From positions 2,910,001-2,942,000 of the forward strand of contig NZ_CP066018.1 of NCBI RefSeq assembly GCF_016127575.1: a stretch of 32,000 bases of DNA, given 5' to 3'. The position numbers were made by a program, and so were the translations under genes. Below are positions 1,462 through 26,945 of the stretch, piece after piece (the first letter of the stretch is position 1; every line of letters begins with the position of its first letter). The notes below the pieces were generated by a model, which saw only the letters and a list, made by a program, of their open reading frames with translations, made no database searches and was not told where the DNA came from. Source of the stretch: Cupriavidus necator (GTDB taxonomy: Bacteria; Pseudomonadota; Gammaproteobacteria; Burkholderiales; Burkholderiaceae).

Positions 1462-1471
1462 CCCGTAAAGG

Positions 1472-1495
1472 AAAACCCCGCCGCGGCGGGGTTTT
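1472..1495. terminator. Bidirectional rho-independent terminator between convergent phoR and ppk
   Basis: AAAACCCCGCCGCGGCGGGGTTTT is a GC-rich hairpin flanked by an A-run and a T-run. It lies 10 nt after the phoR stop and 62 nt beyond the ppk stop. Confidence 0.8.
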
Positions 1496-1557
1496 GCATG
1501 TTATGCCTCAGGGAAGCCTCCTCGGCTCCTGGCGCAAGGTGGGCAACAGAAGCCCGC

Positions 1558-3645: not shown

Positions 3646-3690
3646 GAGCATGACCTTCTTTTGGTAATGTGGCGACTTTTTCATAAAAAC

Positions 3691-3708
3691 GTGTCACTTT
3701 TATGACAG
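3691..3708 (-). promoter_or_regulatory. Pho-box-like site facing ppk
   Basis: The minus strand reads CTGTCATAAAAGTGACAC, against the E. coli-type Pho box CTGTCATA(A/T)A(T/A)CTGTCA(C/T). The first half-site matches 7/7 and the second 5/7. It lies 46-63 nt upstream of the ppk ATG. Confidence 0.5.
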
Positions 3709-3715
3709 TTTGATT

Positions 3716-3733
3716 TTGTCATGATGCAGACAT
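3716..3733 (+). promoter_or_regulatory. Pho-box-like site facing ppx
   Basis: TTGTCATGATGCAGACAT has half-sites matching 6/7 and 5/7 with a 4-nt spacer. It lies about 105 nt upstream of the ppx ATG. Confidence 0.35.
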
Positions 3734-3838
3734 GATCAGGACATATTTTTCCCGGGCGCGAACGCCGGCAGGCCAAGGCACCAGAGCGCACCTGCCGCGC
3801 CACGCAACGCCAACGCGAACCAGCCCTCCTAGCACACG

Positions 3839-12475: not shown

Positions 12476-13549
12476 ATGGGCATCGAACAAGAACGGAAAA
12501 GTCGGTTAAACGGGAAGTTGGCGGCCGGGGCGGTCCTTGGAATTGCGATCACTACTACTGTTCAGGCACAGAGTTCGTCCGGAGTAAGCCTGTACGGCAT
12601 CATCGATACCACCATTCGCTACTCAAACAATAACCAGGGCGACAATAAGTTGGCTGCGTTAACCGACGGCTATTTCAACGGCTCACGCTGGGGCATGCGG
12701 GGCAACGAGGCGCTCGGAGGCGGATTGTCCGCCATCTTCAATTTGGAGAGTGGCTTTGATCCCTCGACCGGCGTATCGCAGCAAGGCACCACAACGGCAA
12801 ACTATGGACAGCAGAGTACCGGCGGTCAGGGGCGTTTGTTTGGAAGGCAGGCATGGGTCGGATTGAACCACGAGCGCTTCGGTAGGCTAACGTTCGGCCG
12901 GCAATTCACCACCGGCTACGATGCGACCGCCCGCTTTCAGCCTAACGGTCACCCCAATCTGGACGCAGTCACCATCTTTAACGGCTATACGGGACCGCGC
13001 CAAGACAACATGGCGAAATACGTCGGACAATGGGGAGCGCTATCTGCGGGAGCGTATTACACCTTTGGCGAAGTGTCGGGTCATATGAAGCCGAGCTCTA
13101 GTTACGGCGCAACTCTCGGCTATAAGCAGGGACCGGTGGACGTCGGTGGCTTCTGGCAGCAGGCCAACGCGCTAACCACGCCCGAGTCGAGAAAAGTCTG
13201 GGGCGTGGGTGGCAACTATCAATGGGGGATAGTCAAGCTAACCTTCGGCTATCTAAACAATCGATTCGATGTGAGCCCGACGCGAAACGATGTATTCAGT
13301 GGCGGCTTCGCTGTGGCGGCTACCTCTGCTCTCACGCTATCCGTTGCGTCGCACTACGACCGCCAGCGCAATGCCTCCGGCAGCCGCATTATGGTGACCG
13401 GCGTCGCGGACTACAACCTTTCAAAGCGCACTGACATTTACGCCGAAATTGATTTCAATCGCATCAACGGTGCCTATGCGCTGCCCACCTTCATGGGAGT
13501 GAAAGGCAGCAAAGTCGGCGGTGGCATCGGCTTGCGACATCGCTTCTAG
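12476..13549 (+). CDS. Outer-membrane general porin (Burkholderiales OmpC-like)
   Basis: Signal peptide ends at VQA-QSS. The mature N-terminus GVSLYGIIDTTIRY, the alternating beta-strand pattern and the C-terminal GGGIGLRHRF with terminal Phe are all typical of Gram-negative porins. Confidence 0.88.
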   Translation: MGIEQERKSRLNGKLAAGAVLGIAITTTVQAQSSSGVSLYGIIDTTIRYSNNNQGDNKLAALTDGYFNGSRWGMRGNEALGGGLSAIFNLESGFDPSTGVSQQGTTTANYGQQSTGGQGRLFGRQAWVGLNHERFGRLTFGRQFTTGYDATARFQPNGHPNLDAVTIFNGYTGPRQDNMAKYVGQWGALSAGAYYTFGEVSGHMKPSSSYGATLGYKQGPVDVGGFWQQANALTTPESRKVWGVGGNYQWGIVKLTFGYLNNRFDVSPTRNDVFSGGFAVAATSALTLSVASHYDRQRNASGSRIMVTGVADYNLSKRTDIYAEIDFNRINGAYALPTFMGVKGSKVGGGIGLRHRF

Positions 13550-13686: not shown

Positions 13687-14547
13687 GTGGACGAACAGGC
13701 AGTTGACCCCAGGACGTGGATTGGACGCAGCGAGCAGTGGGAGGACACAGTCACTGCCGCGCCGATCGCAGCGCTGCGTGCGACGATGGATTACCCCGCA
13801 GCAGCGCAGACAGCAGGCACTCCATTGCCGCCACTGTGGCATTGGCTTTATTTCTTACCCATGCATCGTCAAAGCGAAATTGGGCACGATGGCCATGCCA
13901 AGCGCGGCGGCTTTCTACCCCCTGTGCCATTGCCCCGCCGCATGTGGGCAGGCGGCCAATTCGAGTTTCGCCATCCACTTCGGGTGGGCGACAAGATCCA
14001 GCGCACCTCCGTCATCGACGATGTTACAAGCAAGGAGGGGCGGACCGGAAAGTTAGTATTTGTAAGAGTGCGTCATGAGATCCGCGCCATCGGTACTGCG
14101 GAACCGGCGTTAGTGGAGTTTCACGACATCGTTTACCGAGAGGCACAGCAGTCGGGCGAGGCGCCTGTCATGCCCCAAGCGGCGCCCGCGGAAGCGGCTT
14201 GGCAGCGCCAAATTGTTCCGGACGACGTCTTGCTGTTCCGCTATTCGGCCCTGACTTTCAATGGGCATCGCATCCACTATGACCGTCGCTACGTGACAGA
14301 GGTCGAAGGCTACCCCGGCTTGATTGTCCACGGCCCGCTGATCGCTACGTTGCTACTGGATCTGCTGCGGCGTGAATTGCCCCAGGCAGAGGTCGCCAGC
14401 TTTCGATTCCGTGCGGTGCGCCCGACCTTCGACCTGCATCCCTTCCGGGTCAGCGGTCAACCGCAGTCTGACGGCAAAACAGTTCGCTTGTGGGCATCCG
14501 ACCACGAGGGCTGGCTGACCATGGACGCCACGGCAGTCCTTCGCTGA
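13687..14547 (+). CDS. HTD2/MaoC-like double hot-dog enoyl-CoA hydratase (itaconyl-/mesaconyl-CoA hydratase-like)
   Basis: A GTG start has AAGGAG 8 nt upstream. Features include TWIGRSEQWEDTVT, PLPPLWHWLYF, and a C-terminal MaoC-like half (FRYSALTFNGHRIHYD, GLIVHGPL). Confidence 0.75.
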   Translation: MDEQAVDPRTWIGRSEQWEDTVTAAPIAALRATMDYPAAAQTAGTPLPPLWHWLYFLPMHRQSEIGHDGHAKRGGFLPPVPLPRRMWAGGQFEFRHPLRVGDKIQRTSVIDDVTSKEGRTGKLVFVRVRHEIRAIGTAEPALVEFHDIVYREAQQSGEAPVMPQAAPAEAAWQRQIVPDDVLLFRYSALTFNGHRIHYDRRYVTEVEGYPGLIVHGPLIATLLLDLLRRELPQAEVASFRFRAVRPTFDLHPFRVSGQPQSDGKTVRLWASDHEGWLTMDATAVLR

Positions 14548-14569
14548 TTTCGCTTTACGGAAGATCCTG

Positions 14570-15760
14570 ATGCAACCCCTCAAAGACATCACGGTTGTCA
14601 CATTTGAACACGCGATTGCGGCGCCTTTTGCCACACGGCAGCTTGCCGATCTGGGTGCACGAGTTATTAAGATCGAGCGGCCTGGGGTCGGCGATTTCGC
14701 CCGTGGTTACGATGAGCGGGTCCGTGGCCTGGCCTCGCATTTCGTCTGGACAAACCGCTCGAAGGAAAGCCTGACGCTCGATGTCAAGCACCCGGCCGCG
14801 GCTGGCGTATTACAGCGTCTGATTGAGGAAAAGGCGGACGTGGTGGTTCAGAACCTCGCACCAGGCGCCGCAGCACGGCTTGGTCTGGGCTACGAAACGC
14901 TTTCCGCCGTAAAGCCCCAAATCATTGTGTGTGATATTTCGGGCTATGGCGACAACCCGAAGAATCCTGGACCATACCGCGACAAGAAGGCCTATGACCT
15001 TCTCGTTCAGAGCGAAGCCGGATTTCTGTCCGTGACGGGGACGCCTGACGTGCCTTGCAAGGCTGGGCCTTCCATTGCCGATATCGCCGCCGGCATGTAT
15101 GCCTACACAAACATTCTGGCCGCTCTGTTACAACGCAATCAGACGGGCCGAGGGCAACGTATTGACATCTCCATGCTAGAGGCGCTGGCGGAATGGAATA
15201 GTTACCCTCTCTACTACGCTTTTGATGGGGCACAGCCGCCGCAGCGCACGGGCGCAAGCCACGCCACAATCTACCCCTATGGACCGTTTCCGGCTGGCGA
15301 TGGGGCGACAGTAATGTTGGGGTTGCAGAACGAGCGGGAATGGGCAAACTTCTGCAACACAGTGCTCCAGCGGCCCGAACTGATCGAAGATCCCCGCTTT
15401 AGCTCAAACTCGAGACGCGTGGCCGAGCGCACTGCACTGAGGCAGATCATCGTAGATGCCTTTTTGCCTCTAACCGGTGCCCAAGTGGTGCAGCGATTGG
15501 AGTTGGCCCAGATCGCGAATGCCAGTGTCAATGACATGCAGGGGGTGTGGGAGCATGCTCAACTCAAGGCGCGCGGCCGCTGGACTGAAGTCGACTCGCC
15601 CAAGGGCATGCTGCCGGCTCTCTTGCCCCCAGGAACCTGGAACGAAGGGCCGCGTATGGATCCGATACCGGCACTTGGTCAGCACACCGACACAATTCTC
15701 GCGGAGCTTGGATACGCCTCCGACGAAATCGCCGTGATGCGCGCTGATAGCGTTGTGTAA
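14570..15760 (+). CDS. Family III (CaiB/BaiF) acyl-CoA transferase
   Basis: The N-terminus LKDITVVTFEHAIAAPFATRQLADLGARVIKIERPGVGDFAR is diagnostic of family III CoA-transferases. KKAYDLLVQSEAGF carries the catalytic-Asp region. Confidence 0.88.
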   Translation: MQPLKDITVVTFEHAIAAPFATRQLADLGARVIKIERPGVGDFARGYDERVRGLASHFVWTNRSKESLTLDVKHPAAAGVLQRLIEEKADVVVQNLAPGAAARLGLGYETLSAVKPQIIVCDISGYGDNPKNPGPYRDKKAYDLLVQSEAGFLSVTGTPDVPCKAGPSIADIAAGMYAYTNILAALLQRNQTGRGQRIDISMLEALAEWNSYPLYYAFDGAQPPQRTGASHATIYPYGPFPAGDGATVMLGLQNEREWANFCNTVLQRPELIEDPRFSSNSRRVAERTALRQIIVDAFLPLTGAQVVQRLELAQIANASVNDMQGVWEHAQLKARGRWTEVDSPKGMLPALLPPGTWNEGPRMDPIPALGQHTDTILAELGYASDEIAVMRADSVV

Positions 15761-15807
15761 CGCCTGGCCTAGCGCACCATACATGTGACCTAACGGAGAC
15801 ATAACCT

Positions 15808-17154
15808 ATGGCTTCCACCATCATTGATTCCCGCATTTTTGGCGACATGTTTAGCGACGCGCGCATGCGCGAAGTGTGGTCCGATGAAAACCGCACGGCT
15901 AAATACCTGGACATCGAGCGAGCATTGGCAAAAGTGCAAGGTGAGCTTGGCATCATCCCGCAGGAAGCGGCCGACGAGATCGTCAAGAATTGCGAACTTT
16001 CCCAAATTGACTGGGTTAGGCTCAAGGCAAAGACTGAACAGATCGGATATCCGATTATCGCGGTGGTCAACCAGATCAACGCGAACTGCCGGGATGGGCT
16101 TGGCGAATTCTGCCATTGGGGTGCCACCACCCAGGACATTACCGACACAGCGGCGGTGTTGCAGATGCGCGAGGGCCTGGCACTGATCGAGTCGGATCTC
16201 GACGACATCGCTGACGCGCTTGCGACGCTGGCGAAGCAGTACCGCGACACGCCGGTGATCGGTCGGTCCAACCTGCAGCAAGCCACCCCTATTACGTTCG
16301 GCTACAAGATGGCCAGCATCCTTGCTGGCATCGAGCGCCACCGCGAGCGGCTACAGCAGTTGAAGCCGCGAGTGCTAATGGGTGAGTTCGGCGGCGCATC
16401 CGGTACGCTTTCCTCGTTGCAGACGGGAGCCATGGAAACACAGGCTGCGTTGATGAAGGAACTTGGGCTGGCGCAGCCACTGATCTCCTGGCACACGGTG
16501 CGCGATACGATTGCCGAAGTGGGCGCGTTTCTCGGACTCGTCGGCGGCTCGCTCGGCAAGATCGCCATGGACGTGAAGCTCATGATGCAGACCGAAGTTG
16601 CCGAGGTGTTCGAACCCTTTGCGCCGGGGCGCGGCTCTTCATCGACCATGCCGCAGAAGCGCAACCCGATTTCGTGCCTGTACATCCACGCCAACATCTC
16701 GGTTGCACGGCAGCACGCGGCGGCCCTGATGGATGCGATGGTGGCTGATCACGAGCGTTCAACAGGCCCGTGGGAGATCGAATGGGTATCCCTACCGGAG
16801 ATTTTTTGCCTGATTTCCGGTGCCCTGAAGCAGGCGAAGTTCGTGTTGCAGGGCTTGGAAGTGGACGCGGCTCGCATGCGCGCGAATATCGACATGACAA
16901 ACGGGCTAGTTATGTCTGAGGCGGTGATGATGGGCCTGGGTCCATATATTGGGCGCGAGTATGCGCACGATCTGGTCTATGACCTTTGCCGCGAGGCCAT
17001 TGCCAACAACCGACCCTTGATCGACATCCTCGCGGCACATCCGGAAGTAAGCAGCCACGTGTCACGCGCACAACTCGAGGCCATGTGCGATCCACGCAAC
17101 AATCTTGGCCAAGCCGGCGTAATGGTCGACAGGGTACTGGCTAGCCGGCGCTAA
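15808..17154 (+). CDS. Class II fumarase/adenylosuccinate lyase superfamily enzyme (PcaB/ASL-like)
   Basis: Contains the superfamily signature GSSSTMPQKRNP. HWGATTQDITDTA and the N-terminus (FSDARMREVWSDENR) resemble the 3-carboxymuconate cycloisomerase / adenylosuccinate lyase branch. Substrate is unknown. Confidence 0.8.
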   Translation: MASTIIDSRIFGDMFSDARMREVWSDENRTAKYLDIERALAKVQGELGIIPQEAADEIVKNCELSQIDWVRLKAKTEQIGYPIIAVVNQINANCRDGLGEFCHWGATTQDITDTAAVLQMREGLALIESDLDDIADALATLAKQYRDTPVIGRSNLQQATPITFGYKMASILAGIERHRERLQQLKPRVLMGEFGGASGTLSSLQTGAMETQAALMKELGLAQPLISWHTVRDTIAEVGAFLGLVGGSLGKIAMDVKLMMQTEVAEVFEPFAPGRGSSSTMPQKRNPISCLYIHANISVARQHAAALMDAMVADHERSTGPWEIEWVSLPEIFCLISGALKQAKFVLQGLEVDAARMRANIDMTNGLVMSEAVMMGLGPYIGREYAHDLVYDLCREAIANNRPLIDILAAHPEVSSHVSRAQLEAMCDPRNNLGQAGVMVDRVLASRR

Positions 17155-17229: not shown

Positions 17230-18159
17230 TTATTTGCCACGCCGTTTGCCGGCGGGCGCGCCACGTCTTGGTCGTGTTTCGCAAAGGAAGTCATAGAGCT
17301 GCTGCGCGGCAGGTGTTAAGGATCGGCTCTTGCGGCGTATTAACCCAATTTTGCGCGTCACGACCGGGTCGGTTAGTGGGACACTAACTAGAAGCGGATG
17401 ATCTGGACCTGGCATGGCGATGGATGGCACCGCTGCGATGCCAAGCCCGGCTTCGACCAAGCCCAAGGTCGTGGTGACGTGCTGCGTCTCGTAGATACTC
17501 TGCGGCAATCGTGACACGTTCGAAAGCGCCTGATCGAGGAGCAGCCGGTTGCCGGAAGCTTTGCTGACCGAGATGTAGTCATATTCGGCGAGGTCTGCCC
17601 AGGTCACTTGCCGTCGCTCCGCGAGTGGATGATCGCGACGGCAGGCCGCAACGAACCGTTCCTCCAGCAAGGGCCTGAATTCAATGTCTGGCTCTTGGCC
17701 TCCCACGAAATCGATCCCGAAATCTGCTTCACTGCGCGACACCGCTGACAGTACCTCGTTTGCGCTGGCATCCAGAATCTTTACCCGAATCTTCGGATAC
17801 TGCGCGTGGTAACGCGAGATGACTTGCGGCAAGAAGTAATAAACCGTCGACGGTACGCAAGCAATAGTCACTTCCCCCATCCGCGTCGTTGTCACTCCGC
17901 GTATGCCCAGCAGTGCCTGATCCAGTTCGTCAAGTATCTCCTTTACCTTTCGGTCGAAATCCCGGCCGACGGTCGTAAGGCTAACCCGGCGGGTGGTGCG
18001 GTCGAGTAAGCGCACTCCCAAGGCCTCTTCAAGCTTGTCTATGCGACGGCTAAAGGCCGGCTGTGAGACGTTCAGGGAGGTAGCCGCCTTGCGGAAGCTA
18101 TTCAGTTCGGCAACGGCACGAAACGCCTGCAAATCATTGAGGTTGAAGTTGATGGTCAT
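17230..18159 (-). CDS. LysR-family transcriptional regulator
   Basis: N-terminal wHTH (LNDLQAFRAVAELNSFRKAATSLNVSQPAFSRRIDKLEEALGVRLLDRTTR) followed by a LysR substrate-binding domain. ATG 18159 (MTINFNL) is preferred over 18192, because the longer form would place the shared dyad inside the coding sequence. Confidence 0.88.
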   Translation of the reverse strand: MTINFNLNDLQAFRAVAELNSFRKAATSLNVSQPAFSRRIDKLEEALGVRLLDRTTRRVSLTTVGRDFDRKVKEILDELDQALLGIRGVTTTRMGEVTIACVPSTVYYFLPQVISRYHAQYPKIRVKILDASANEVLSAVSRSEADFGIDFVGGQEPDIEFRPLLEERFVAACRRDHPLAERRQVTWADLAEYDYISVSKASGNRLLLDQALSNVSRLPQSIYETQHVTTTLGLVEAGLGIAAVPSIAMPGPDHPLLVSVPLTDPVVTRKIGLIRRKSRSLTPAAQQLYDFLCETRPRRGAPAGKRRGK

Positions 18160-18182
18160 TGCACTTTCCCGAGCGTCATCAC

Positions 18183-18207
18183 TGATGCGCATTGTGCATC
18201 AATTGAT
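18183..18207. promoter_or_regulatory. Dyad TGATGCG-N5-TGCATCA overlapping palindrome ATCAATTGAT in the lysR-bug divergent region
   Basis: Same arm sequence and spacing as the porin-upstream dyad (one mismatch). It lies 24-42 nt upstream of the preferred lysR start and about 100 nt upstream of the bug ATG. Confidence 0.5.
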
Positions 18208-18303: not shown

Positions 18304-19275
18304 ATGCAATCATCGAAGCGACTTTTACTTTGCAGCATTGCGATCGCGGTATCACTTGGCAGCGTCAGCGCCTTTGGTGCGTTCCCTGACAAGAGAATTT
18401 CGCTGGTAGTGCCCACCGCAGCGGGAGGCGCTAATGACGCCATGGCGCGGGTAGTTGGCCAGGCAATGTCGACCATTCTCAATCAGACAATCGTGGTCGA
18501 CAACAAAGCGGGGGCGAACGGCGCGATTGCCAGTGAGTTTGTCATGCGTGCCCCACCGGACGGCTACACGTTGCTACTCGGCTACGTGGCGACACATGCC
18601 ATGAACCCTGCGCTGCAGAAGCTTCGGTACGATCCCGTTAAGGATTTTGTGCCCGTTGGCATGGTGGGTTCTTCGGCAACCGTGATGGTCGTCAATCCAA
18701 ACCTGAAGGCCAACGATGCCAAGGGAGTCGTGACGCTACTCAAAGCAACGCCAGGAAAGATCAGTTACGCGTCGGCGGGCAATGGAACCGCTCCGCATTT
18801 TGCCGCGGAGATGTTCAAACTCTCGACCGGCACCGAGATGCTTCATGTGCCGTATAAGGGGTCAGCTCCGGCGATTAACGACACAGTTGCCGGGCAGACA
18901 CAAGTGATGTTTCCGAGTCTTTTCACCGCCATGCCCCAGTTGAAGAACGGCAAGCTGAAGGCGGTCGGGATTGCAGGCAGCAAGCGCTCTTCGCTGATGC
19001 CAGAGTTGCCCACGCTGAAGGAACAAGGGATCGACGACGTTGATGTTTCCCAGTGGTATGCCATCTTCGCCCCCGCGAACACACCAGCCCCCGTTGTAGA
19101 AGCATTGAACAAGGCATTAAACCAGGCGTTGAAGGATAAAGCCGTTGTCCAGCGTTTGGAGGGACAAGGCGCAGAGGTTACGACCATGTCCACGGCCCAG
19201 ATGCGAACATTTATTCAGGAGGAACAGGTCAAGTGGAAGAAAGTAGTTCAGGCGGCAAAACTGAAGGCGGACTGA
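18304..19275 (+). CDS. Bug/TctC-family periplasmic substrate-binding protein (tripartite tricarboxylate transporter receptor)
   Basis: Signal peptide MQSSKRLLLCSIAIAVSLGSVSAFG. Family motifs are ISLVVPTAAGGANDAMAR, DNKAGANGAIA, YASAGNGTAPHFAAEMF, HVPYKGSAPA and SQWYAIFAPANTP. No TctA or TctB genes are present in the window. Confidence 0.88.
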   Translation: MQSSKRLLLCSIAIAVSLGSVSAFGAFPDKRISLVVPTAAGGANDAMARVVGQAMSTILNQTIVVDNKAGANGAIASEFVMRAPPDGYTLLLGYVATHAMNPALQKLRYDPVKDFVPVGMVGSSATVMVVNPNLKANDAKGVVTLLKATPGKISYASAGNGTAPHFAAEMFKLSTGTEMLHVPYKGSAPAINDTVAGQTQVMFPSLFTAMPQLKNGKLKAVGIAGSKRSSLMPELPTLKEQGIDDVDVSQWYAIFAPANTPAPVVEALNKALNQALKDKAVVQRLEGQGAEVTTMSTAQMRTFIQEEQVKWKKVVQAAKLKAD

Positions 19276-19276
19276 G

Positions 19277-21316
19277 ATGAGCAAGACAATACCTTGCGTG
19301 CTGATGCGAGCCGGCACCTCGCGCGGGCCGTTCTTTCTGCGGGAGTGGCTGCCCGAAAGCGTAGAGGCTCGCGACCAGGCGTTGATCGGTGCCATCGGTG
19401 CCTCCGACCCGCTTCAACTGGACGGGGTGGGCGGCGGTAGCACGCTGAACAGCAAGGTGGCGATTGTTTCGCGATCCACGCAACCCGGCTGTGACCTTGA
19501 CTACCTGTTCGTACAGGTAGGAGTGGGTAACTCCTCGGTGGACACCCGGCCCAACTGCGGCAATATGCTTTCCGGAGTCGCACCCTTTGCGATCGAGCAA
19601 GGCCTGGTTGCAGCCCAACTCGGCTCAACCCGCGTGCGCGTTCACAACGTCAATACAGGCTCGCGAATCGATGTGACGGTCCGCACGCCTAATGGGCGGG
19701 TCACCTATGACGGCGACACTCGAATCGATGGCGTTGCGGGCACTGGGTCACCAATCTTGCTCGATTTCGTCGATGCGTGGGGCGCAGTGACCGGAAAGGT
19801 CTTTCCGACGGGCAACCGCGTTGACCTGATTGACGGCATCGAAGTGACTTGTATCGATGCGGCGATGCCATTGATGCTCGTCCGGGCACGCGACCTCGGT
19901 GTCAGTGGACGCGAGGCGCCGGCCACGCTCGACAATGATCCGATACTGCTTGCGCGTCTGGAAGCGCTGCGCTTGCAGGCTGGGCAGTTGATGGGGCTGG
20001 GCGACGTCTCGGACAGCGTTATTCCAAAGCCAGTCCTGGTCAGCCCCGGCGATTCGCCGGAAAGCATTACGTCGCGCTACTTTACGCCCCGCAAATGTCA
20101 TGCGTCGCATGCAGTCACCGGCGCCATCGGCGTTGCCAGCGCATTCGCCTTACCTGGGACGGTTGCTAGCCAATTGACCCGATTGCCCGGCCGCCACGCA
20201 CTTGTCGTCTTGCACCCAGCGGGACGGATCGAAGTGGAGGTGGAATTGGAGGGGGAGGGCGATGCGGCTACTGTAACAAGAGCGGCTCTCGTTCGAACGG
20301 CACGCAAGATCATAGAAGGTCAGCTCCATCTGCCCGAATATGTCTTCTCGCGGCCGGAAGGCAGCCGAGTAAAGCAGGCCTCGGCTCGGCATTCATTGCG
20401 GATCATCGTACCAACCCGTGCCGGAGGCGGCAACGATCTTGTGGCACATCTTATTGGTCCCAGGCTTGGGCGACTGCTGGGGCATGACGTCATCATCGAT
20501 AACCGTCCCGGTGCCAACGGCGGCATCGCCTGCGAGTACGTGGCGCGGGCAGTACCCGATGGTCAGACGCTCTTGCTCGGCTATATTGGAACTCATTCAA
20601 TGAATCCGGCCCTGCAACCTGTTGGGTATGATCCGGTTTCGTCTTTTTCTCCGGTCGGGCTTATAGGATCGTCACCGATATTGTTGGTGGCGAATCCAAT
20701 GCAGACGCCGCTTGACCTGGGTACGCTGGTCGCCCACATGAAGCGCGAGCCTGGAAGGTTTCGCTACGCGTCCGCAGGGGACGGTACACCGCCGCACTTT
20801 GCCGCAGAGCTTTTCCAACTGGCCACTGGCACTTCGATGCGCAGTACTACCTTCGAGGGCGCAGCGCCTGCCATCGCGTCGACCATTGATGGACGGACAC
20901 AGGTTATGTTCGCGAGCCTGCTGACAGCGTATCGGCCGGTGGGTGCCGGTCAGTTGCGAGCACTGGCAGTCGCCGGACCCAAACGTCTGCCAGTGCTGCC
21001 AGAAGTACCGACGCTTGCGGAGTTGGGCGTGAGGGGCATGGAATTGACTCAGTGGTATGGTCTGTTTGCCCCGGCGGGAACTGCTGCCACGATGGTGGAG
21101 CAGCTCAATGGCGCCTTGGCTGCAGTCCTACGGGATCCAGAGGTCAAAGAGGGCTTCGAGAGCTACGGCGCAGCCCCCGAGCCGGGCGGTTCCGAACTTC
21201 TCGCAAGACGGGTGGAGACTGAACTAGAGCGCTGGCAGCGCATTGTTAGGGTGTCAGGTCTTGCGCCGTCGTCGATCGACGGTGACCCGGTGCAACAGTT
21301 TCTGGAGCCCTGCTAA
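19277..21316 (+). CDS. Fusion protein: N-terminal PrpF/GalD/Mii-family isomerase plus C-terminal signal-less Bug/TctC domain
   Basis: A single uninterrupted 679-codon frame starting 1 nt after the bug stop. Residues 1 to about 350 show IPCVLMRAGTSRGPFF, RPNCGNMLSGVAPFA and a C-terminal RTARKIIEG (PrpF family). Residues about 370-679 show RIIVPTRAGGGNDL, DNRPGANGGIA, YASAGDGTPPHFAAELF and TQWYGLFAPAGT (Bug family). Confidence 0.8.
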   Translation: MSKTIPCVLMRAGTSRGPFFLREWLPESVEARDQALIGAIGASDPLQLDGVGGGSTLNSKVAIVSRSTQPGCDLDYLFVQVGVGNSSVDTRPNCGNMLSGVAPFAIEQGLVAAQLGSTRVRVHNVNTGSRIDVTVRTPNGRVTYDGDTRIDGVAGTGSPILLDFVDAWGAVTGKVFPTGNRVDLIDGIEVTCIDAAMPLMLVRARDLGVSGREAPATLDNDPILLARLEALRLQAGQLMGLGDVSDSVIPKPVLVSPGDSPESITSRYFTPRKCHASHAVTGAIGVASAFALPGTVASQLTRLPGRHALVVLHPAGRIEVEVELEGEGDAATVTRAALVRTARKIIEGQLHLPEYVFSRPEGSRVKQASARHSLRIIVPTRAGGGNDLVAHLIGPRLGRLLGHDVIIDNRPGANGGIACEYVARAVPDGQTLLLGYIGTHSMNPALQPVGYDPVSSFSPVGLIGSSPILLVANPMQTPLDLGTLVAHMKREPGRFRYASAGDGTPPHFAAELFQLATGTSMRSTTFEGAAPAIASTIDGRTQVMFASLLTAYRPVGAGQLRALAVAGPKRLPVLPEVPTLAELGVRGMELTQWYGLFAPAGTAATMVEQLNGALAAVLRDPEVKEGFESYGAAPEPGGSELLARRVETELERWQRIVRVSGLAPSSIDGDPVQQFLEPC

Positions 21317-21647
21317 ATTACTTCGTAAGAGGTAGCGGTCGGTAACCGATGTGGTGCCTGCAACCGGCGCACGCTCGATTGTTGGGGTTCGCCTGCCTGC
21401 GAAAACGGAGATACTTTGGGACAACAGAACCGGTTATGGACGGCCGCCATGCTCGACCATCGCTGTGATGAGCCGGCCAAGGACTGCCTACAGTCTTGCA
21501 ACTGCATATCAGCCGGGTTCCGTGTCGGCTCGAAGGAAGTCGGCAATGATTTCGGCAGACCTGCAAGAGTTGATGAAGGGATTTCCGGCCAGGCTCCCCG
21601 CATTACGTGGGGGGCCTTGCACTGACTCGATCGTCGCAATATGGGCA

Positions 21648-21849
21648 ATGCCGCCGCGCGCGTACCGCCCCCTGAGAAGGCGAGGATGACCAGGTTTTCG
21701 TTGTCCGCCGAATACTGGGGGCGCGTGAAGAAGCGATAGCCGGCACCCTGGTCCGCGTGCGCGCTCGTCGGATTGACTGGCCGGGAGGCGCAGGCGGCAA
21801 GCAGAAGCAGCATCGAAATGACGGCCAAGGCTGAGGTCGGCGATCTGGC
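21648..21849 (-). pseudogene. Truncated patatin-like phospholipase lipoprotein (N-terminal fragment)
   Basis: A lipobox (MLLLLAAC) is followed by NLVILAFSGGGTRAAA, the oxyanion-hole glycine motif of patatin-like lipoproteins. Similarity is lost immediately afterward. No GxSxG nucleophile region follows in frame. Confidence 0.55.
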
Positions 21850-22091
21850 AATAGGTCCCCCGCGGCGACTGCAGGACGAACCGGACCGGGCGGGTCGGCG
21901 TGCTGCAACTCCCCCAATACTAGTCGGCCAATGTAGCGATTGGCATACGTTTTGAGGTTGTCCCGGCGCGGCCACTCGTCTAGACTGGATTTCACCTGCC
22001 CAAGAGACCGGTACTTAACCTGGCTTGGCGAATGCGCGGCGGTGAGGCCGCCGATCCGGTACCTTTGCGGTGATCTGCAGGGAGACAAGCG

Positions 22092-23195
22092 ATGTTGCCC
22101 ACGCCCACTTCAGAGAGAGCGCTGTCCCGCGGACTACTCGATGTGCTGATCCGTGCCGGGCTGATCGCGGTGCTGGCAATCTTCTGCTTCCGGATATTCC
22201 GCCCCTTCCTCGATCTCATTGTCTGGTCCGTGATCCTGGCGGTGACCATCTACCCGCTCCAGGTCAGGCTCAGGCGCAGGCTGGGCAACAAGGACGGCCG
22301 CGCCGCCACGCTGATCGTGCTGGCCGCCATCGCCATCATTGCGCTGCCAGCCTACCTGCTGGGCGCCGCCATGATCGACTCGATGGAGAATGCGATCGCC
22401 ATCGTCAAGAGCGAAGGCATTCATATTCCGCCACCGCATGAGTCGGTCGCCAGCTGGCCGCTGGTTGGCCAGCGCCTGTATGACCTCTGGCTGCAAGCCG
22501 CCTCGGACCTGGCCAGCGTGGTGCAGACGCTGGCGCCTCAGATCAAGGAAATCAGCCTGGCCGTGCTGGCCGCAGCCGCCGGCATCGGCAAGGGGCTGCT
22601 GATCTTCGTCTTCGCGCTGATTATCGGGGGCATCTTCATGGCCTACGGCGAGGCCGGCAACCGCAGCACCGTGCAGATTGCCTCGCGCATTTTCGGCCTG
22701 GAGCGGGGCCAGCGCATCGCCACGCTATGCACCGCGACCATCCGTGCTGTGGCGCAGGGCGTGGTCGGCATCGCCTTCATCCAGATGCTGCTGATCGGCA
22801 TAGGTTTTGTGATCAAGGGGGTTCCTGCCGCGGGCGTGCTGGCCATGGCCGTGCTGCTGCTGGGCATCGCGCAGTTGCCGGCAACGCTGATCACGGTGCC
22901 GGTGATCATCTATGTCTTTGCCACGGAAGGTGCCAGCGTTGCCACTATCGTCTTCGCCATCTATGTCTTCGTGGCGGGACTGGCCGACAACGTGCTCAAG
23001 CCACTGCTGCTCGGGCGCGGCGTCGATGTGCCGATGCCGGTGGTATTGATCGGTGCCCTGGGCGGCATGGTGACAGGCGGCGTGATCGGCCTGTTTATCG
23101 GTCCGGTGGTGCTTGCGGTCGGGTATCAGCTGTTCTGGCAATGGGTGGAAGACCCGCCGCCGCAAGCGGATCCCGGCAACCAGCAACAGACCTGA
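22092..23195 (+). CDS. AI-2E (PerM/UPF0118) family transporter
   Basis: A 367-aa polytopic membrane protein. The layout is characteristic of the family (RIFRPFLDLIVWSVILAVTIYPL ... ADNVLKPLLLGRGVDVPMPVVLIGALGGMVTGGVIGLFIGPVVLAV). GGGAGA lies upstream of the ATG. Confidence 0.82.
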   Translation: MLPTPTSERALSRGLLDVLIRAGLIAVLAIFCFRIFRPFLDLIVWSVILAVTIYPLQVRLRRRLGNKDGRAATLIVLAAIAIIALPAYLLGAAMIDSMENAIAIVKSEGIHIPPPHESVASWPLVGQRLYDLWLQAASDLASVVQTLAPQIKEISLAVLAAAAGIGKGLLIFVFALIIGGIFMAYGEAGNRSTVQIASRIFGLERGQRIATLCTATIRAVAQGVVGIAFIQMLLIGIGFVIKGVPAAGVLAMAVLLLGIAQLPATLITVPVIIYVFATEGASVATIVFAIYVFVAGLADNVLKPLLLGRGVDVPMPVVLIGALGGMVTGGVIGLFIGPVVLAVGYQLFWQWVEDPPPQADPGNQQQT

Positions 23196-23213
23196 AGTGG
23201 TCCGGGGTCACGC

Positions 23214-24758
23214 ATGTCGCGCTGGAATCATCCGCTGCGCGCATTGCTGGCCTGCGCCTGTTGCCTTGGCGGCTGCGCGCGCCTGGGGCCGGATTTCCAG
23301 CCGCAGCATGCGCCCTGGACGCAGCAGTGGCACAGCCCGGCGCTTGAGCAGGCGACCGAGCAGCGGGCCCAGCCCGACATCCGCGAGTGGTGGCAGGTCT
23401 TTGCCGACCCGACGCTCGAACGCCTGGTCGCCGAAGCCGACGCGCACAATGCCAGCCTGCGGATTGCCGGCCTGCGCGTGATGGAAGCGCGCGCCCAACT
23501 GGGCATTGCCCAGAGCGGGCGCTTCCCGCAACTGCAGCAGGCCAGTGCCGATGCCCTGTACACGGACCGCCGGCAGGCCGGCGGCCTGAACCCGCAGAAC
23601 AGCCGCTTCTGGCAATACAGCGCGGGCTTCGACATCGGCTGGGAACTCGATTTCTGGGGCCGCTTCAGCCGCGCCATCGAATCTGCCGATGCTGTCTATT
23701 TTGCCGCCCGAGCCAACCGCGACGATGTGCTGGTGCTGCTGCGCGCCCAGGTGGCTGAGACCTACTTTGCGCTGCGCACGGCCGAGGCACGGCTGCGCAT
23801 CGCCCGCGACAACGCAGCGCTGCAAAAGCGCAGCCTTGAGATCACCGAGCGGCTGTTCAAGAGTGGCGAGACCGACGAGCTCGACCTGCAGCAAGCGAAG
23901 ACGCAGTACCTGGGCACCCTGAGCAGCATTCCTGAATTTGAAAGCCAGATCATGCGCACCCGCAATGCCCTGGCGGTGCTGATGGGCCGCCCGCCAGGCC
24001 CGTTGCCGGAGCTGCCGGAACTGGTGGGCAAGGAAGGGGTGATTCCACTGATCGATCGCGCGGTACTGCAGGATGTGCCTGCCAGCCTGTTGTTGCGCCG
24101 TCCGGATATTCGCGCCGCCGAGCTGCAGATTGCCGCGCAATCGGCGCTGATCGGCGTGGCCGAAGCCGATCTCTATCCGTCGCTGACGTTGCTGGGCAGC
24201 ATTGTCTGGTCCGCCAGCACGCTGGCCGGCACGCCCAACAGCCTGGCCCTGATCGGTGGCCCCAGCCTGCGCTGGAGCGTGTTCGACTACGGCCGCATCA
24301 AGAACACCGTGCGCGTGCAGGACGCCCGCCTGCAGCAGCTGATCGTCGCCTACCAGGATGCCGTGCGGCAGGCGGCGCGCGAGGCCGACGATGCCGCCAG
24401 TGCCCTGATCAAGGCGCTGGATCGCGAGCAGATCCTGCGCGACAGCGCGCTGGCCGCCAGGCGTTCGCTGACGCTGGCCAACGCGCTCTACCGCGAAGGC
24501 TACTCGGACTTCCAGCGCGTGCTGGATGCTCAGCGTGCGCTGGCCACCCAGCAGGACGCCTACCTGGTCAACCGCAGCAATGCCGTCAGCAACCTGATCG
24601 CCTTGTACAAGGCCCTCGGCGGCAGCTGGCACAGCGAGCAGCCACTGGTGGACCCGGCCACCCGTCAGCAGATGCAGCAACGCACCGACTGGGGGAACCT
24701 GCTGGATGAACCGGGCCCGCCGTCCGCCGGTGCCAGCCTCCCAGTGAAGCAGAGGTAG
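23214..24758 (+). CDS. Efflux outer-membrane factor lipoprotein, NodT family
   Basis: Lipobox LGGC followed by the typical PDFQPQHAP. WWQVFADPTLERLV is present, as are two repeated OEP halves (LDLQQAKTQY..., VLDAQRALATQQD...). Confidence 0.9.
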   Translation: MSRWNHPLRALLACACCLGGCARLGPDFQPQHAPWTQQWHSPALEQATEQRAQPDIREWWQVFADPTLERLVAEADAHNASLRIAGLRVMEARAQLGIAQSGRFPQLQQASADALYTDRRQAGGLNPQNSRFWQYSAGFDIGWELDFWGRFSRAIESADAVYFAARANRDDVLVLLRAQVAETYFALRTAEARLRIARDNAALQKRSLEITERLFKSGETDELDLQQAKTQYLGTLSSIPEFESQIMRTRNALAVLMGRPPGPLPELPELVGKEGVIPLIDRAVLQDVPASLLLRRPDIRAAELQIAAQSALIGVAEADLYPSLTLLGSIVWSASTLAGTPNSLALIGGPSLRWSVFDYGRIKNTVRVQDARLQQLIVAYQDAVRQAAREADDAASALIKALDREQILRDSALAARRSLTLANALYREGYSDFQRVLDAQRALATQQDAYLVNRSNAVSNLIALYKALGGSWHSEQPLVDPATRQQMQQRTDWGNLLDEPGPPSAGASLPVKQR

Positions 24759-24778
24759 ATCTCCCTGAGCGAGTGCCG

Positions 24779-25906
24779 ATGAGCGATGCCCCGCAACCCA
24801 CCGCAGCCCCAGCGCCCAGCGCACCGCCGCCCGCCGCCGACCCGGCAAGGAAGGGCGTGCGCTGGGTGCTCTTGCTGATCGTCATCAGCCTGACCTGGTA
24901 CCTGTTTGCCGACCGGTTGACCCCGTACACGCAGCAGGCGCGGGTACAGGCTTTCGTGGTGCCGGTTGCGGCGGAAGTGTCCGGGCGTGTGACCAAGGTG
25001 CATGTGCGCAACAACCAGGACGTCGCGGCAGGCACTGTCCTGTTCGAGGTGGATCCCCAGCACTACAAGATTGCCGTGGACCGCGCCCGCGCCGATCTGG
25101 AGTCGACACGCCGGCAGATCGGCGCCAGCACCGCGGGCATCGAATCGGCGCAGGCATCGCTGCGCGCAGCACGCGCCAACGAGCTCAAGGCGCGCCAGGA
25201 CAGGGACCGCCTGGAGCGCCTGTACAGCGATGATCCCGGCACCATTTCCCTGCGCCGTCTGGAGGTGGCGCGCGCCAGCCTCGAGCAGGCTGTCAGCCAG
25301 GTCGCCGCCGCCAAGGCCGAGGTCCAGCGTGCGCGCGAACAGCAGGGGGGCAGCGAGGAAGAGAACGCCAAGCTGCGCAGCGCCGCCACTGCCCTGGAAA
25401 AGGCCGAACTGGATCTCGCCAATACGCAGGTGCGGGCGCGCGCCGCCGGGCTGGTCACCGACCTGCGCACCGATGCCGGCCAGTTTGCCGCGGCCGGCAA
25501 TCCGGTCATGACGCTGATCGCGATCCACGATCTGTGGATCAGCGCGGAGATGACCGAGAACAACCTGGGCCGTGTCGAGCCCGGCACGCCGGTTGCCATC
25601 GTGCTGGATGCGCTGCCGGGCAGGATCTTTGAGGGCCGGGTGCGCAGTGTCGGCTATGGCGTCAACGTCGGCCCGAGCACGCCGCCGGGCAGCTTGCCGA
25701 CGGTGCAGAACAGCCGAGACTGGCTGCGTCCGGCGCAACGCTTCCCGGTGGTGGTCGAGATTGCCCAGGGCGAACTCGCCTCGATGCGCGGCATTCGCGT
25801 GGGCGGGCAGGCCGAGGTCATGGCGTTTCCCACCCAGGGCAACCCGCTCAATCCGCTCGGCCGTGTATTCCTGTACCTGATGAGCTGGCTTTCCTATGTC
25901 TACTGA
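24779..25906 (+). CDS. HlyD-family membrane fusion (periplasmic adaptor) protein
   Basis: An N-terminal TM (VRWVLLLIVISLTWYLF), a lipoyl-like hairpin (VAAEVSGRVTKVHVRNNQDVAAGTVLFEVDP), a long coiled coil and a beta-barrel (ANTQVRARAAGLVTDL). GTG 24773 is an alternative start. Confidence 0.88.
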   Translation: MSDAPQPTAAPAPSAPPPAADPARKGVRWVLLLIVISLTWYLFADRLTPYTQQARVQAFVVPVAAEVSGRVTKVHVRNNQDVAAGTVLFEVDPQHYKIAVDRARADLESTRRQIGASTAGIESAQASLRAARANELKARQDRDRLERLYSDDPGTISLRRLEVARASLEQAVSQVAAAKAEVQRAREQQGGSEEENAKLRSAATALEKAELDLANTQVRARAAGLVTDLRTDAGQFAAAGNPVMTLIAIHDLWISAEMTENNLGRVEPGTPVAIVLDALPGRIFEGRVRSVGYGVNVGPSTPPGSLPTVQNSRDWLRPAQRFPVVVEIAQGELASMRGIRVGGQAEVMAFPTQGNPLNPLGRVFLYLMSWLSYVY

Positions 25907-26945
25907 CAGCCCGGTGCTGCCGATGCCCGCGCGCGATCCACGCGCCCAGCGTTCGCTGCGCGTGGCGAGCGGCACCGCGCTGTGCCTGGCGGCCAGCTTC
26001 GGCCTGGGCCTGCCGATCCCCATGCTCGCGCCGGTGCTCGGCGTGTTCCTGCTGGCCAGCGTCAACCAGCCGGTGTCGCCCAAGGCCGGGCTGGGCCTGG
26101 TGCTGGTCGTGATGCTGACCACCGGCACTGGCCTGCTGCTGATCCCCATGCTGCGCTACTACCCCGTCAGCGGCGTGCTGATGATCGGCCTGTGCCTGTT
26201 CCTGGCCTTTAGCTACGGACTGCGCGGCGGCAACAACCTGGTCTCCACCTTCCTGGTGATCGGCCTGACCATGATCTCGGCGGCGGGCACCTTCGATTTC
26301 GGGCTGGCGGTCATGGTCATCGGTGCCCTGGTCAAGGGGCTGCTCGTCGCGGTCGTGGTGCTGGCACTTTGCCACTGGCTCTTTCCCGAACCGGCCGGCG
26401 CGCAGGCGCGGCCTGCGGCCAAGGCCTTGCCGGATGACCAGGCCGCCTGGATTGCGCTGCGTGCGGCGCTGGTGGTGATGCCGGCCTTCCTGCTGGCGCT
26501 GAACGACCCGGCCGCGTACATCCCGATCATCATGAAAGCGGTCAGCCTCGGCCGGCAAAGCTGCACCACCACGGCACGCGGCGCCGGGCGCGAACTGCTT
26601 GGCTCGACCTTGTTCGGTGGCGTGCTGGCCATCCTGTTCTGGTGCGCACTCAGCCTGTTCGTGCATTTGTGGATGTACTTCCTGTGGATGCTGCTGTTTG
26701 GCCTGCTGGCGGCGCGCAAGCTGTATGGCCTCAGCCCGTCGCGGTACCCGCCAGGCTTCTGGGTGAACACTCTGGTGACGCTGATCATCCTGCTGGGCCA
26801 GTCCGTGCAGGACAGCGCGGCCGGGAAGGATGTCTATACCGCCTTCGCCGTGCGCATGGGCCTGTTTGTCGGCGTCACGCTGTATGCCTGGCTGATGATC
26901 GAGCTGCTCGACCAGCCGCGCGGCGCACGACGGCATGCCCGCTGA
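25896..26945 (+). CDS. DUF2955/FUSC-like inner-membrane protein (putative pump component)
   Basis: Overlaps the adaptor gene stop by 11 nt. It is a 349-aa polytopic protein with a FUSC-like N-terminus (LRVASGTALCLAASFGLGLPIPMLAPVLGVFLLAS). The family name is recalled from memory and has not been searched. Confidence 0.65.
   Translation: MSTDSPVLPMPARDPRAQRSLRVASGTALCLAASFGLGLPIPMLAPVLGVFLLASVNQPVSPKAGLGLVLVVMLTTGTGLLLIPMLRYYPVSGVLMIGLCLFLAFSYGLRGGNNLVSTFLVIGLTMISAAGTFDFGLAVMVIGALVKGLLVAVVVLALCHWLFPEPAGAQARPAAKALPDDQAAWIALRAALVVMPAFLLALNDPAAYIPIIMKAVSLGRQSCTTTARGAGRELLGSTLFGGVLAILFWCALSLFVHLWMYFLWMLLFGLLAARKLYGLSPSRYPPGFWVNTLVTLIILLGQSVQDSAAGKDVYTAFAVRMGLFVGVTLYAWLMIELLDQPRGARRHAR

Follow-up and report, generated by a model that had tools for sequence, protein, structure and literature searches.

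A PrpF-family isomerase fused to a Bug/TctC domain without a signal peptide, widespread in Burkholderiales and possibly acting on aconitate

So far, Bug/TctC proteins have been known solely as receptors that act outside the cytoplasm, and the huge orphan families that they form in Burkholderiales are an open puzzle. We describe here a gene in which a domain of this kind, deprived of its signal peptide, follows a PrpF-family isomerase in the same reading frame. The gene lies in a 32,000-nucleotide stretch of the Cupriavidus necator genome (contig NZ_CP066018.1, positions 2,910,001 to 2,942,000 of the forward strand), which is called the window below and in whose numbering positions are given. 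An earlier note, made from the letters of the window alone, had read positions 19277 to 21316 as a single frame of 679 codons with a PrpF domain in the first 350 or so residues, a polar linker of about 16 residues, and a full Bug/TctC domain behind it. This reading is confirmed by the frame itself, by Pfam and by alignment. The parts of the gene, and the free paralogue next to it, are as follows.

19277-21316, plus strand: PrpF::TctC fusion gene, a single uninterrupted open reading frame (ORF) of 679 amino acids plus the stop codon
19277-20347, plus strand: PrpF-family isomerase domain, residues 1-357, from Pfam, NCBIfam and PDB matches
19454-19456 and 19556-19558, plus strand: codons of the putative catalytic residues Lys60 and Cys94, from alignment to the LigU mutant positions
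20348-20395, plus strand: interdomain linker SRPEGSRVKQASARHS, residues 358-373, polar, with length and sequence that vary across the fusion family
20396-21262, plus strand: Bug/TctC domain without signal peptide, residues 374-662
20411-20437 and 20765-20797: first clamp loop (PTRAGGGND) and distal pocket motif (YASAGDGTPPH) of the Bug domain
20849-20863, plus strand: remodelled second clamp loop (T-F-E-G-A) of the fused Bug domain
21263-21313, plus strand: C-terminal tail, residues 663-679, poorly conserved and of low model confidence
18304-19275, plus strand: free periplasmic Bug/TctC paralogue with a TctC match, a hydrophobic signal peptide and the canonical VPYKG

The Pfam matches cover both families almost end to end: PrpF (PF04303) at residues 4-353 (E = 6e-111, 371 bits, profile positions 3-371 of 371) and TctC (PF03401) at residues 397-661 (E = 8e-49, 167 bits, profile positions 9-273 of 274). 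When the protein is aligned to solved Bugs, the TctC homology begins earlier, at about residue 371, and the fused domain scores 195 bits against BugE. As the earlier note had stated, an export signal is lacking at the N-terminus and at the junction: no 15-residue Kyte-Doolittle window there exceeds 0.25; the N-terminus of the upstream Bug, which that note had taken for a normal signal-bearing receptor, reaches 2.39. The absence of a signal peptide predicts that the fused Bug domain is located in the cytoplasm. Public names for such proteins are '4-oxalomesaconate tautomerase' (NCBI) and 'PrpF/tripartite tricarboxylate transporter receptor' (JGI). Both domain families are already well known; what is new is their architecture, the cytoplasmic Bug domain, the survival of three gene arrangements and the pathway context. 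In the literature searched, no PrpF-TctC fusion or cytoplasmic Bug domain was found.

The structure was modelled with AlphaFold2 (AF2) from two alignments. When the first, of 72 closely related fusions, was used, the N-terminal domain was modelled poorly (predicted local distance difference test, pLDDT, 67.8). With 149 sequences, including unfused homologues, the mean pLDDT rose to 85.6 and both domains reached about 90, with a predicted template modelling score (pTM) of 0.61; the linker (residues 360-371) and the C-terminal tail (664-679) stayed below 50. The model suggests two well-folded domains on a flexible tether, whose mutual orientation is not confident. As the interdomain arrangement cannot be trusted in either run, no channelling geometry is claimed. 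A Foldseek search with the model returned no PDB chain that spans both domains. The N-terminal domain superposes on YbhH and LigU with template modelling (TM) scores of 0.92-0.95, and the Bug domain superposes on liganded Bug structures with 0.91-0.94. It fits closed, liganded Bugs (0.93-0.94) better than open ones (0.79-0.82), a preference that carries little weight since AF2 often favours closed forms.

The fusion is not peculiar to this genome. The identical protein (P0001) exists from an independent assembly, and a word-indexed search of public data gave over 120 clusters (90% identity) of proteins 665-689 amino acids long, all with both Pfam domains and 69-86% full-length identity, from Cupriavidus, Variovorax, Ramlibacter, Rhodoferax, Hydrogenophaga, Pseudorhodoferax and Ottowia. 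The junction is therefore not an assembly error. In a species survey with one genome per species, 80 loci were kept, and all 80 encode the full-length fusion, at 63-86% identity and all within Burkholderiales; the survey adds Polaromonas, Limnohabitans, Piscinibacter, Ideonella, Rhizobacter, Methylibium, Caenimonas and Noviherbaspirillum. An exhaustive HMMER search against 1.84 billion representatives of 50%-identity clusters placed one full-length fusion representative, along with fragments, among its 150 best-scoring clusters, so that the fusion appears to be a single, fairly tight family. Independent PrpF-TctC fusions were looked for among the same 150 clusters and rejected: the other long matches were TctC-TctC, PrpF-PrpF or FA_hydroxylase-PrpF.

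Two labels met in these surveys deserve a remark. Metagenome-assembled genomes labelled 'Synechococcus sp. UW140' and 'Candidatus Intricatilinea gracilis' (among L035 and L087) carry a Burkholderiales-type fusion locus, probably through contamination of the bins. One record (L008, CP158803.1) is titled 'Ralstonia pickettii RAL3', yet its protein is named after Cupriavidus necator.

Both parts of the protein are under purifying selection. In comparison with the closest genome, the ratio of nonsynonymous to synonymous substitution (dN/dS) comes to 0.04 in the PrpF part and 0.09 in the TctC part; in other pairs the TctC part gives 0.10-0.24, and the linker evolves almost freely. The low ratios indicate that the Bug domain is kept by purifying selection, and its full length is retained in 80 of 80 species. 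With these results, neither an error of sequencing or assembly nor a lesion confined to one strain can account for the fusion. Such an explanation had prior plausibility only, in that loss of a stop codon did happen in the history of the locus; it is refuted by the identical protein in an independent assembly, by hundreds of orthologues built alike and by selection on both domains, and we give it practically no credence. The lesion had been envisaged with two separate genes at all orthologous loci; the fusion is instead found in at least 80 Burkholderiales species. The note's other suggestion, that a cytoplasmic Bug domain has been recruited as a module, stands as far as sequence can take it, on the spread over these species, the purifying selection and the invariant core ligand motifs discussed below.

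The origin of the fused domain can be read from three arrangements that survive in present-day genomes. In the first, found in Limnohabitans sp. Rim28 (L088) and one other genome (L089), the genes are separate: a divergent LysR gene is followed by a prpF of 350-357 codons, a gap of 9-13 nucleotides, and a bug gene whose product has a signal peptide and the canonical VPYKG. In both genomes the prpF stop codon sits inside the ribosome-binding site of bug (TAAGGAG; TGAAGGAGAC). In the second, found in nine species of Piscinibacter, Ideonella, Rhizobacter, Methylibium and relatives, prpF has no stop codon. The ribosome-binding site GAAGGAGAC is translated as (P)EGD, QGD or DGD, and behind it come a start codon in the same frame (ATG or GTG), a signal peptide that is still intact and a Bug domain with the canonical VPYKG.

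L055, L058, L068, L070, L071, L075, L076, L078 and L087: read-through loci, with the junction (CCC GAA GGA GAC ... ATG/GTG AAG) about 1.07 kb into each fusion ORF

For two of the read-through proteins (P0348 and P0368), the NCBI and JGI gene calls give the same single ORFs. None of the nine loci has an orthologous upstream Bug; three have only distant Bugs, of 30-38% identity. A read-through ORF may be translated both into a full-length protein, with the signal peptide as internal signal-anchor, and into a secreted Bug that has its own initiation; or it may give a bitopic protein, which signal peptidase then cuts.

The third arrangement, the fusion without a signal peptide, accounts for 173 of the 182 unique sequences, the window's among them. 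Its linkers are mostly of 13-17 residues, within a range of 13 to 50 for the whole fusion family, and the lysine of the second clamp loop is gone in all members except L063 and L072. These two look like intermediates, L063 with a degenerate hydrophobic core and RYKG, and L072 without a signal peptide and with PHKG. In the window itself, positions 20354-20374 read CCG GAA GGC AGC CGA GTA AAG, the decayed Shine-Dalgarno sequence, start codon and lysine codon of the ancestral bug gene. The possibility that a free cytoplasmic Bug is still made in the window from this site was considered and rejected, the ancestral start being now GTA and the ribosome-binding site decayed.

In a neighbour-joining tree of Bug domains, the fused domains that bear a signal peptide join the free upstream Bugs, and those without one form a clade of their own. 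The three arrangements and the relic junction indicate a bug gene downstream of prpF as the ancestor of the fused domain, the free Bug upstream of the fusion being a paralogue. The upstream bug gene is thus not the partner in the fusion. The earlier proposal of a recent deletion that joined two genes was right in its mechanism, which involved loss of the stop codon and then deletion of the signal peptide, and wrong in its timing, as the event is old and its products are spread over three families. We read the three arrangements as stages that followed one another in time. The prpF stop codon, overlapping the ribosome-binding site of bug, would have been lost first, turning the site into the peptide (P)EGD. 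The signal peptide would have been deleted later, trapping the receptor domain in the cytoplasm. The periplasmic role would then have passed to the paralogous free Bug, with or instead of a carrier of the DctA type.

What the trapped domain has kept and what it has lost can be judged from the known workings of Bug receptors. In these, a first clamp loop, P-F-x-A-G-G-x-x-D, holds the proximal carboxylate of the ligand through waters; a second loop closes onto the first (K177-G178-T179 in TphC, where K177 touches S31 of the first loop); and the distal carboxylate is held by the N-terminus of a helix (PMC5812351, PMC8556258). By position, K177-G178-T179 of TphC corresponds to the P-Y-K-G-(S/T) motif of the Bug family. 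The upstream Bug and the fused domain are 46% identical over 289 residues without gaps (E = 6e-94), close to the half that had been estimated by eye, and motifs were compared between 58 free orthologues and 182 fused sequences. Fused and free families share, nearly without variation, the first clamp, PTxAGGxND, and, as distal motif, YASAG(D/N)GT(P/A)PHF. The window's PTRAGGGND keeps the P, G, G and D of the first clamp signature, and the change from Phe to Thr is common to both families. In total, 68 of 289 Bug positions are at least 95% identical in both.

The second clamp differs. Its P, Y, K and G are each present in 100% of the 58 free orthologues, and P, Y and K also in 100% of the nine signal-peptide-bearing forms. 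In the 182 fused sequences the corresponding residues are T/S/P, Y/F/H, E/D/Q (78%, with K in only 6%) and G (100%). In the window, HVPYKG of the upstream Bug aligns with STTFEG of the fusion, so that the divergence of this region, noticed earlier in the single pair, holds for the family; the window's TTFEGA does not fit the V-P-Y-K-G-(S/T) signature. Altogether, 14 positions that are at least 95% conserved in the exported forms have relaxed or switched in the trapped forms, and seven of these are Lys or Arg (R424, K489, K527, K556, K559, K569 and K654). The residues invariant only in exported Bugs and lost here may be those needed for docking to and hand-over to TctAB, or for the native latch, with the ligand pocket kept.

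The latch appears to have been changed and not abolished. Position 381 corresponds to S31 of TphC and 527 to K177, that is, to the contact between the two lobes. Arg at 381 is paired with Glu or Asp at 527 in 98 of 101 sequences, with a mutual information of 0.57 against 0.10 after shuffling, a statistic that ignores phylogeny. This covariation suggests a charge-swapped inter-lobe latch, and hence that the closed state is still relevant. PDB entry 8HKB, by its title and alignment a terephthalate-bound (TPA-bound) Bug from Ideonella with K184D at the position of lysine 527, indicates that an acidic residue there does not preclude ligand binding.

These comparisons bear on whether the fused domain may be blind to ligand, either as a structural appendage for solubility, oligomerization or docking (for instance to a Tad1-like tetramer), or as what is left, in slow decay, of the read-through ORF. 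Such a domain would account for the loss of the invariant P-Y-K clamp and of several invariant basic residues, for the higher mean column entropy of the fused domain (1.07, against 0.70 in periplasmic orthologues), and for the lower identity between pairs of fused domains (67% on average, where the PrpF domain has 84%). A database variant, P0321, with most of the Bug domain deleted, points the same way. Neutral decay is, however, ruled out by dN/dS values of 0.09-0.24 over a long divergence; conservation is 96-100% in the first clamp and the distal pocket motif, neither of which has an evident structural role; the domain is full length in 80 of 80 species; and K184D in the related Bug still gives a ligand-bound structure. 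A ligand-blind domain is improbable in our estimate.

P0321 itself is a metagenomic protein of 404 amino acids in which the linker runs straight into the C-terminal 'QWNALFAPAGTP...' of Bug. It is either a decaying copy or a mis-assembly.

The substrate of the isomerase domain can be approached through its relatives. The closest PDB entries are E. coli YbhH (6OTV; 54% identity, 402 bits), the function of which is unknown (PMC9068703), and LigU (45% identity, 311 bits). The positions mutated in the LigU K66M and C100S variants align to K60 and C94 of the fusion; across the fusion family C94 is invariant and K60 at least 90% conserved. Aconitate isomerases have been described within the PrpF family. 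Adi1 of Ustilago is one; its best characterised match is GalD, and its gene is clustered with that of Tad1 (PMC4720413). TarA and TbrA of Bacillus are others, found with a LysR regulator and an adjacent importer (PMC11495376).

Unfused relatives point in the same direction. In Limnohabitans (L088:8001-13546), the separate prpF and the signal-bearing bug are followed by genes for a short-chain dehydrogenase, TcuA (776 bits) and TcuB (691 bits). The TcuA/TcuB tricarballylate dehydrogenase system produces cis-aconitate. The arrangement suggests a tricarballylate/aconitate utilization locus that uses a receptor of the tripartite tricarboxylate transporter (TTT) type. In E. coli, ybhH (L091:2760-3812) is followed by genes for a DASS 'tricarboxylate transporter' and for an aconitase-family protein (ybhJ). 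These two contexts, the presence of Tad1-like, CoA-transferase and itaconyl-CoA hydratase genes at the fusion loci (see below), and the proven aconitate isomerases of the family lead us to assign cis/trans-aconitate isomerization as the most likely activity of the N-terminal domain, and on balance a probable one. The ligands proposed earlier for the Bug domain, aconitates and itaconate among them, fit this neighbourhood.

The database name offers a different substrate. If it is right, the N-terminal domain is a 4-oxalomesaconate (OMA) tautomerase or isomerase like GalD and LigU, and the ligand of the Bug domains is an aromatic or ring-cleavage acid. The domain does score 486.5 bits against the NCBIfam model NF033377 (OMA_tautomer), above the cut-off of 440, and resembles LigU at 45% identity and a TM-score of 0.95. 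Yet genes of gallate or protocatechuate 4,5-cleavage are missing: no ring-cleavage dioxygenase or OMA hydratase, and no conserved 4-carboxy-4-hydroxy-2-oxoadipate (CHA) aldolase, was found in the window and the five orthologous loci inspected. A lone RraA-like gene about 7 kb from the fusion in L001 is not conserved. NF033377 also accepts the unfused protein of Limnohabitans (L088:8001-9074) beside tcuAB; YbhH, which is closer than LigU and is labelled only 'putative isomerase', belongs to a genome not known to degrade gallate and is encoded beside an aconitase-family gene; and the proven aconitate isomerase Adi1 likewise has GalD as its best characterised match (PMC4720413). None of these YbhH-like proteins stands in a gallate or protocatechuate context, and the clade is probably over-annotated systematically as '4-oxalomesaconate tautomerase'. 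The database name is, in our judgement, very improbable as a guide to function here, even more so than a ligand-blind Bug domain.

The neighbouring genes give the isomerase a pathway. Their conservation is counted over the 51 loci that extend at least 8 kb to either side of the fusion, referred to as full loci.

17230-18192, minus strand: divergently transcribed LysR-type regulator, in 48 of 51 full loci
15808-17154, plus strand: Tad1-like lyase of 448 amino acids, probable trans-aconitate decarboxylase, in 44 of 51 full loci
14570-15760, plus strand: family III CoA-transferase (Pfam CoA_transf_3), candidate itaconate CoA-transferase, in 41 of 51 full loci
13687-14547, plus strand: MaoC-type hydratase of 286 amino acids, homologue of itaconyl-CoA hydratase, in 42 of 51 full loci
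12476-13549, plus strand: porin that heads the hydratase, transferase and lyase genes, in Cupriavidus-type loci only

Further companions in the full loci are an HpcH/CitE-type lyase (34) and a DctA-type carrier (18). The free Bug orthologue lies directly upstream of the fusion in 37 of the 80 loci and elsewhere in the locus in most others; in the window its stop codon ends 1 nucleotide before the ATG of the fusion, to which the gene is translationally coupled. In Ramlibacter the hydratase, transferase and lyase genes come directly after the fusion gene, on the same strand.

The lyase is closer to Tad1 of U. maydis (9H3I, 551 bits) than to Pseudomonas CMLE (388 bits). It is 56.9% identical to Tad1 over 436 amino acids without gaps and falls below the NCBIfam cut-offs for CMLE, and its Q109, S277, S278, R317, T319, W322 and W326 match the residues of Tad1 probed by mutagenesis (Q152, S320, S321, R360, T362, W365 and W369). 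The hydratase has only two PDB matches, both of one 275-amino-acid protein: 8KHG, 'itaconyl-CoA hydratase' (E = 1e-70, full length), and 8HUC. The best PDB match of the CoA-transferase, which scores below every NCBIfam equivalog cut-off, is SUGCT, and the best model for the HpcH lyase (L003:4246-5076) is the itaconate C-C lyase RipC/Ccl, at a score below its cut-off. The cluster thus encodes a probable catabolic route, from aconitate to itaconate through the Tad1-like lyase, and on through itaconyl-CoA and citramalyl-CoA to pyruvate and acetyl-CoA. A bacterial trans-aconitate decarboxylase was not found in the literature searched, and fungal Tad1 may derive from bacterial genes of this kind. 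Orphan Bug genes are the rule in Burkholderiales (PMC8556258). TctA and TctB were not found among the ORFs of at least 200 amino acids in the 32-kb window, which is uninformative here.

In C. necator H16, 'operon2' (ict2, ich2) contributes to the consumption of itaconate, yet none of itaconate, mesaconate, citramalate and methylsuccinate induces its promoter (PMC13491972). Were operon2 orthologous to positions 13687-17154 of the window, its true inducer could be aconitate.

Taken together, the best explanation is that the fusion is a cytoplasmic, cofactor-free aconitate isomerase with a tethered Bug module for the capture of tricarboxylates. We put its probability at about 0.5; the identity of the substrate, the binding of ligand by the fused domain and its role in capture and hand-off all enter as conjectures. 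The N-terminal domain, with its K60/C94 pair, would interconvert cis- and trans-aconitate. The trapped domain descends from the receptor of the pathway and keeps the pocket motifs, so it most plausibly still binds the imported acid, and in the cytoplasm it would bind an aconitate isomer with receptor-like affinity. It could thereby capture substrate at the low cytoplasmic levels delivered by a high-affinity uptake system, keep free trans-aconitate low and hand the ligand to the tethered isomerase. Trans-aconitate is an inhibitor of aconitase (cited in PMC4720413). The isomerase would split the aconitate between two fates, the cis form entering the tricarboxylic acid (TCA) cycle and the rest going through the Tad1-like decarboxylase, the CoA-transferase and itaconyl-CoA hydratase to pyruvate and acetyl-CoA. 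Capture and hand-off by the Bug domain are the more tentative part of this proposal, with somewhat less than an even chance. In its most extended form, the proposal has an intracellular capture or chaperone module that buffers trans-aconitate for the isomerase, within an unrecognised pathway from trans-aconitate through itaconate to pyruvate and acetyl-CoA, and with read-through forms that are possibly bitopic; this we find possible but rather doubtful. A bitopic read-through form would consist of a cytoplasmic isomerase, an internal signal-anchor and a periplasmic receptor, and might couple uptake physically to the first step of catalysis.

Several observations weigh against a capture module tethered to an aconitate isomerase. 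A stoichiometric binder alone cannot raise steady-state flux. AF2 gives no fixed interdomain geometry (pTM 0.61) and predicts neither a channel nor an interface. The remodelled P-Y-K of the second clamp and the seven relaxed basic residues, invariant in exported forms, could reflect altered or lost ligand binding instead of lost docking, and the pairing of 381 with 527, which speaks for closure, was scored with the blindness to phylogeny mentioned above. As to the pathway, NF033377 favours the other substrate at face value, and the CoA-transferase and the HpcH lyase are below the curated NCBIfam cut-offs of itaconate-pathway models. Finally, a neighbour-joining tree of PrpF domains mixes unfused metagenomic sequences, some of them probably truncated calls, among the fused ones, and does not fix the number of fusion and signal-loss events.

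Many of the same features would also suit a regulatory sensor. Closure of the fused Bug domain on aconitate, itaconate, citrate or another pathway metabolite would then switch the isomerase, and so set the share of aconitate that goes to the TCA cycle as against the decarboxylase branch. It would be comparable to the effector domains of LysR and LacI regulators, cytoplasmic sensors with the fold of periplasmic binding proteins. The flytrap domain is retained and under selection, the covariation of the inter-lobe latch implies that switching between open and closed states matters, the remodelled second clamp could retune affinity to cytoplasmic concentrations, and a flexible tether would suit an autoinhibitory domain as well as an activating one. 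However, no conserved interdomain interface is predicted (pTM 0.61), a hypervariable linker of 13 to 50 residues is unusual for tight allosteric coupling, and the LysR regulator already supplies control of the pathway. To our knowledge, no PrpF-family isomerase is allosterically regulated. We consider a sensor unlikely, though it comes ahead of the ligand-blind domain. The tethered capture module remains the reading that we prefer.

The fusion shares much with known systems. Its N-terminal domain has the fold and the catalytic Lys/Cys pair of the PrpF-family isomerases (LigU/GalD, YbhH, Adi1, TarA/TbrA, PrpF and Mii), and the divergent LysR gene with an adjacent uptake component recalls tarR-tarAB (PMC11495376) and ybhD-ybhHI. 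The characterised members of the family, however, are single-domain proteins of about 350-440 amino acids without a solute-binding domain. The C-terminal domain likewise has the type II binding-protein fold, the first clamp and the distal pocket helix motif of Bug/TctC receptors (BugD, BugE, AdpC, TphC and TBP), but differs from the exported Bugs in having no signal peptide, in being fused to an enzyme and in the replacement of P-Y-K. The pairing of a PrpF-family isomerase gene with a Tad1-type lyase gene is also found in the itaconate cluster of Ustilago maydis. There the pair makes itaconate for secretion, whereas at the window it sits with genes of the itaconate-degradation type and with uptake components, which implies catabolism.

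Folds of the periplasmic-binding-protein type occur in the cytoplasm as the effector domains of LysR and LacI regulators and in enzymes such as HisG and cyclohexadienyl dehydratase, where they have been reused as sensors or catalysts. Recruitments of the LysR, LacI and HisG type are ancient and their intermediates are lost; here all three arrangements survive, and the partner is a soluble metabolic enzyme. The locus is thus a rare readable record of a secreted receptor turning into a domain of an enzyme, and a cytoplasmic Bug domain kept by selection on an enzyme would mean that the fold can take an intracellular job. The comparison of exported with trapped domains points to residues (P-Y-K and a set of lysines) that may serve the periplasmic role and not ligand binding, and so provides a testable map of TctAB docking. 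The neighbourhood also leads one to predict a trans-aconitate decarboxylase, which would be the first from bacteria, and a catabolic route that would be new, of relevance to the turnover of plant-derived aconitate in soil and to the bioproduction of itaconate in Cupriavidus.

The remaining genes noted in the window are of minor interest. Positions 79-5371 hold the phosphate and polyphosphate genes phoR (79-1461), ppk (1558-3684, minus strand) and ppx (3839-5371), which are unrelated to the fusion. On the minus strand, an ORF of 220 amino acids (21313-21975) overlaps the stop codon of the fusion by 4 nucleotides and has no Pfam match; it is probably spurious, the genome being of high GC content. 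Downstream of the fusion lie the following genes.

22092-23195: AI-2E family transporter
23214-24758: outer-membrane factor
24773-25906: HlyD-type adaptor
25896-26945: DUF2955 membrane protein

The last three form an efflux-type operon; none of these genes (22092-26945) is conserved beside the fusion in other genomes.

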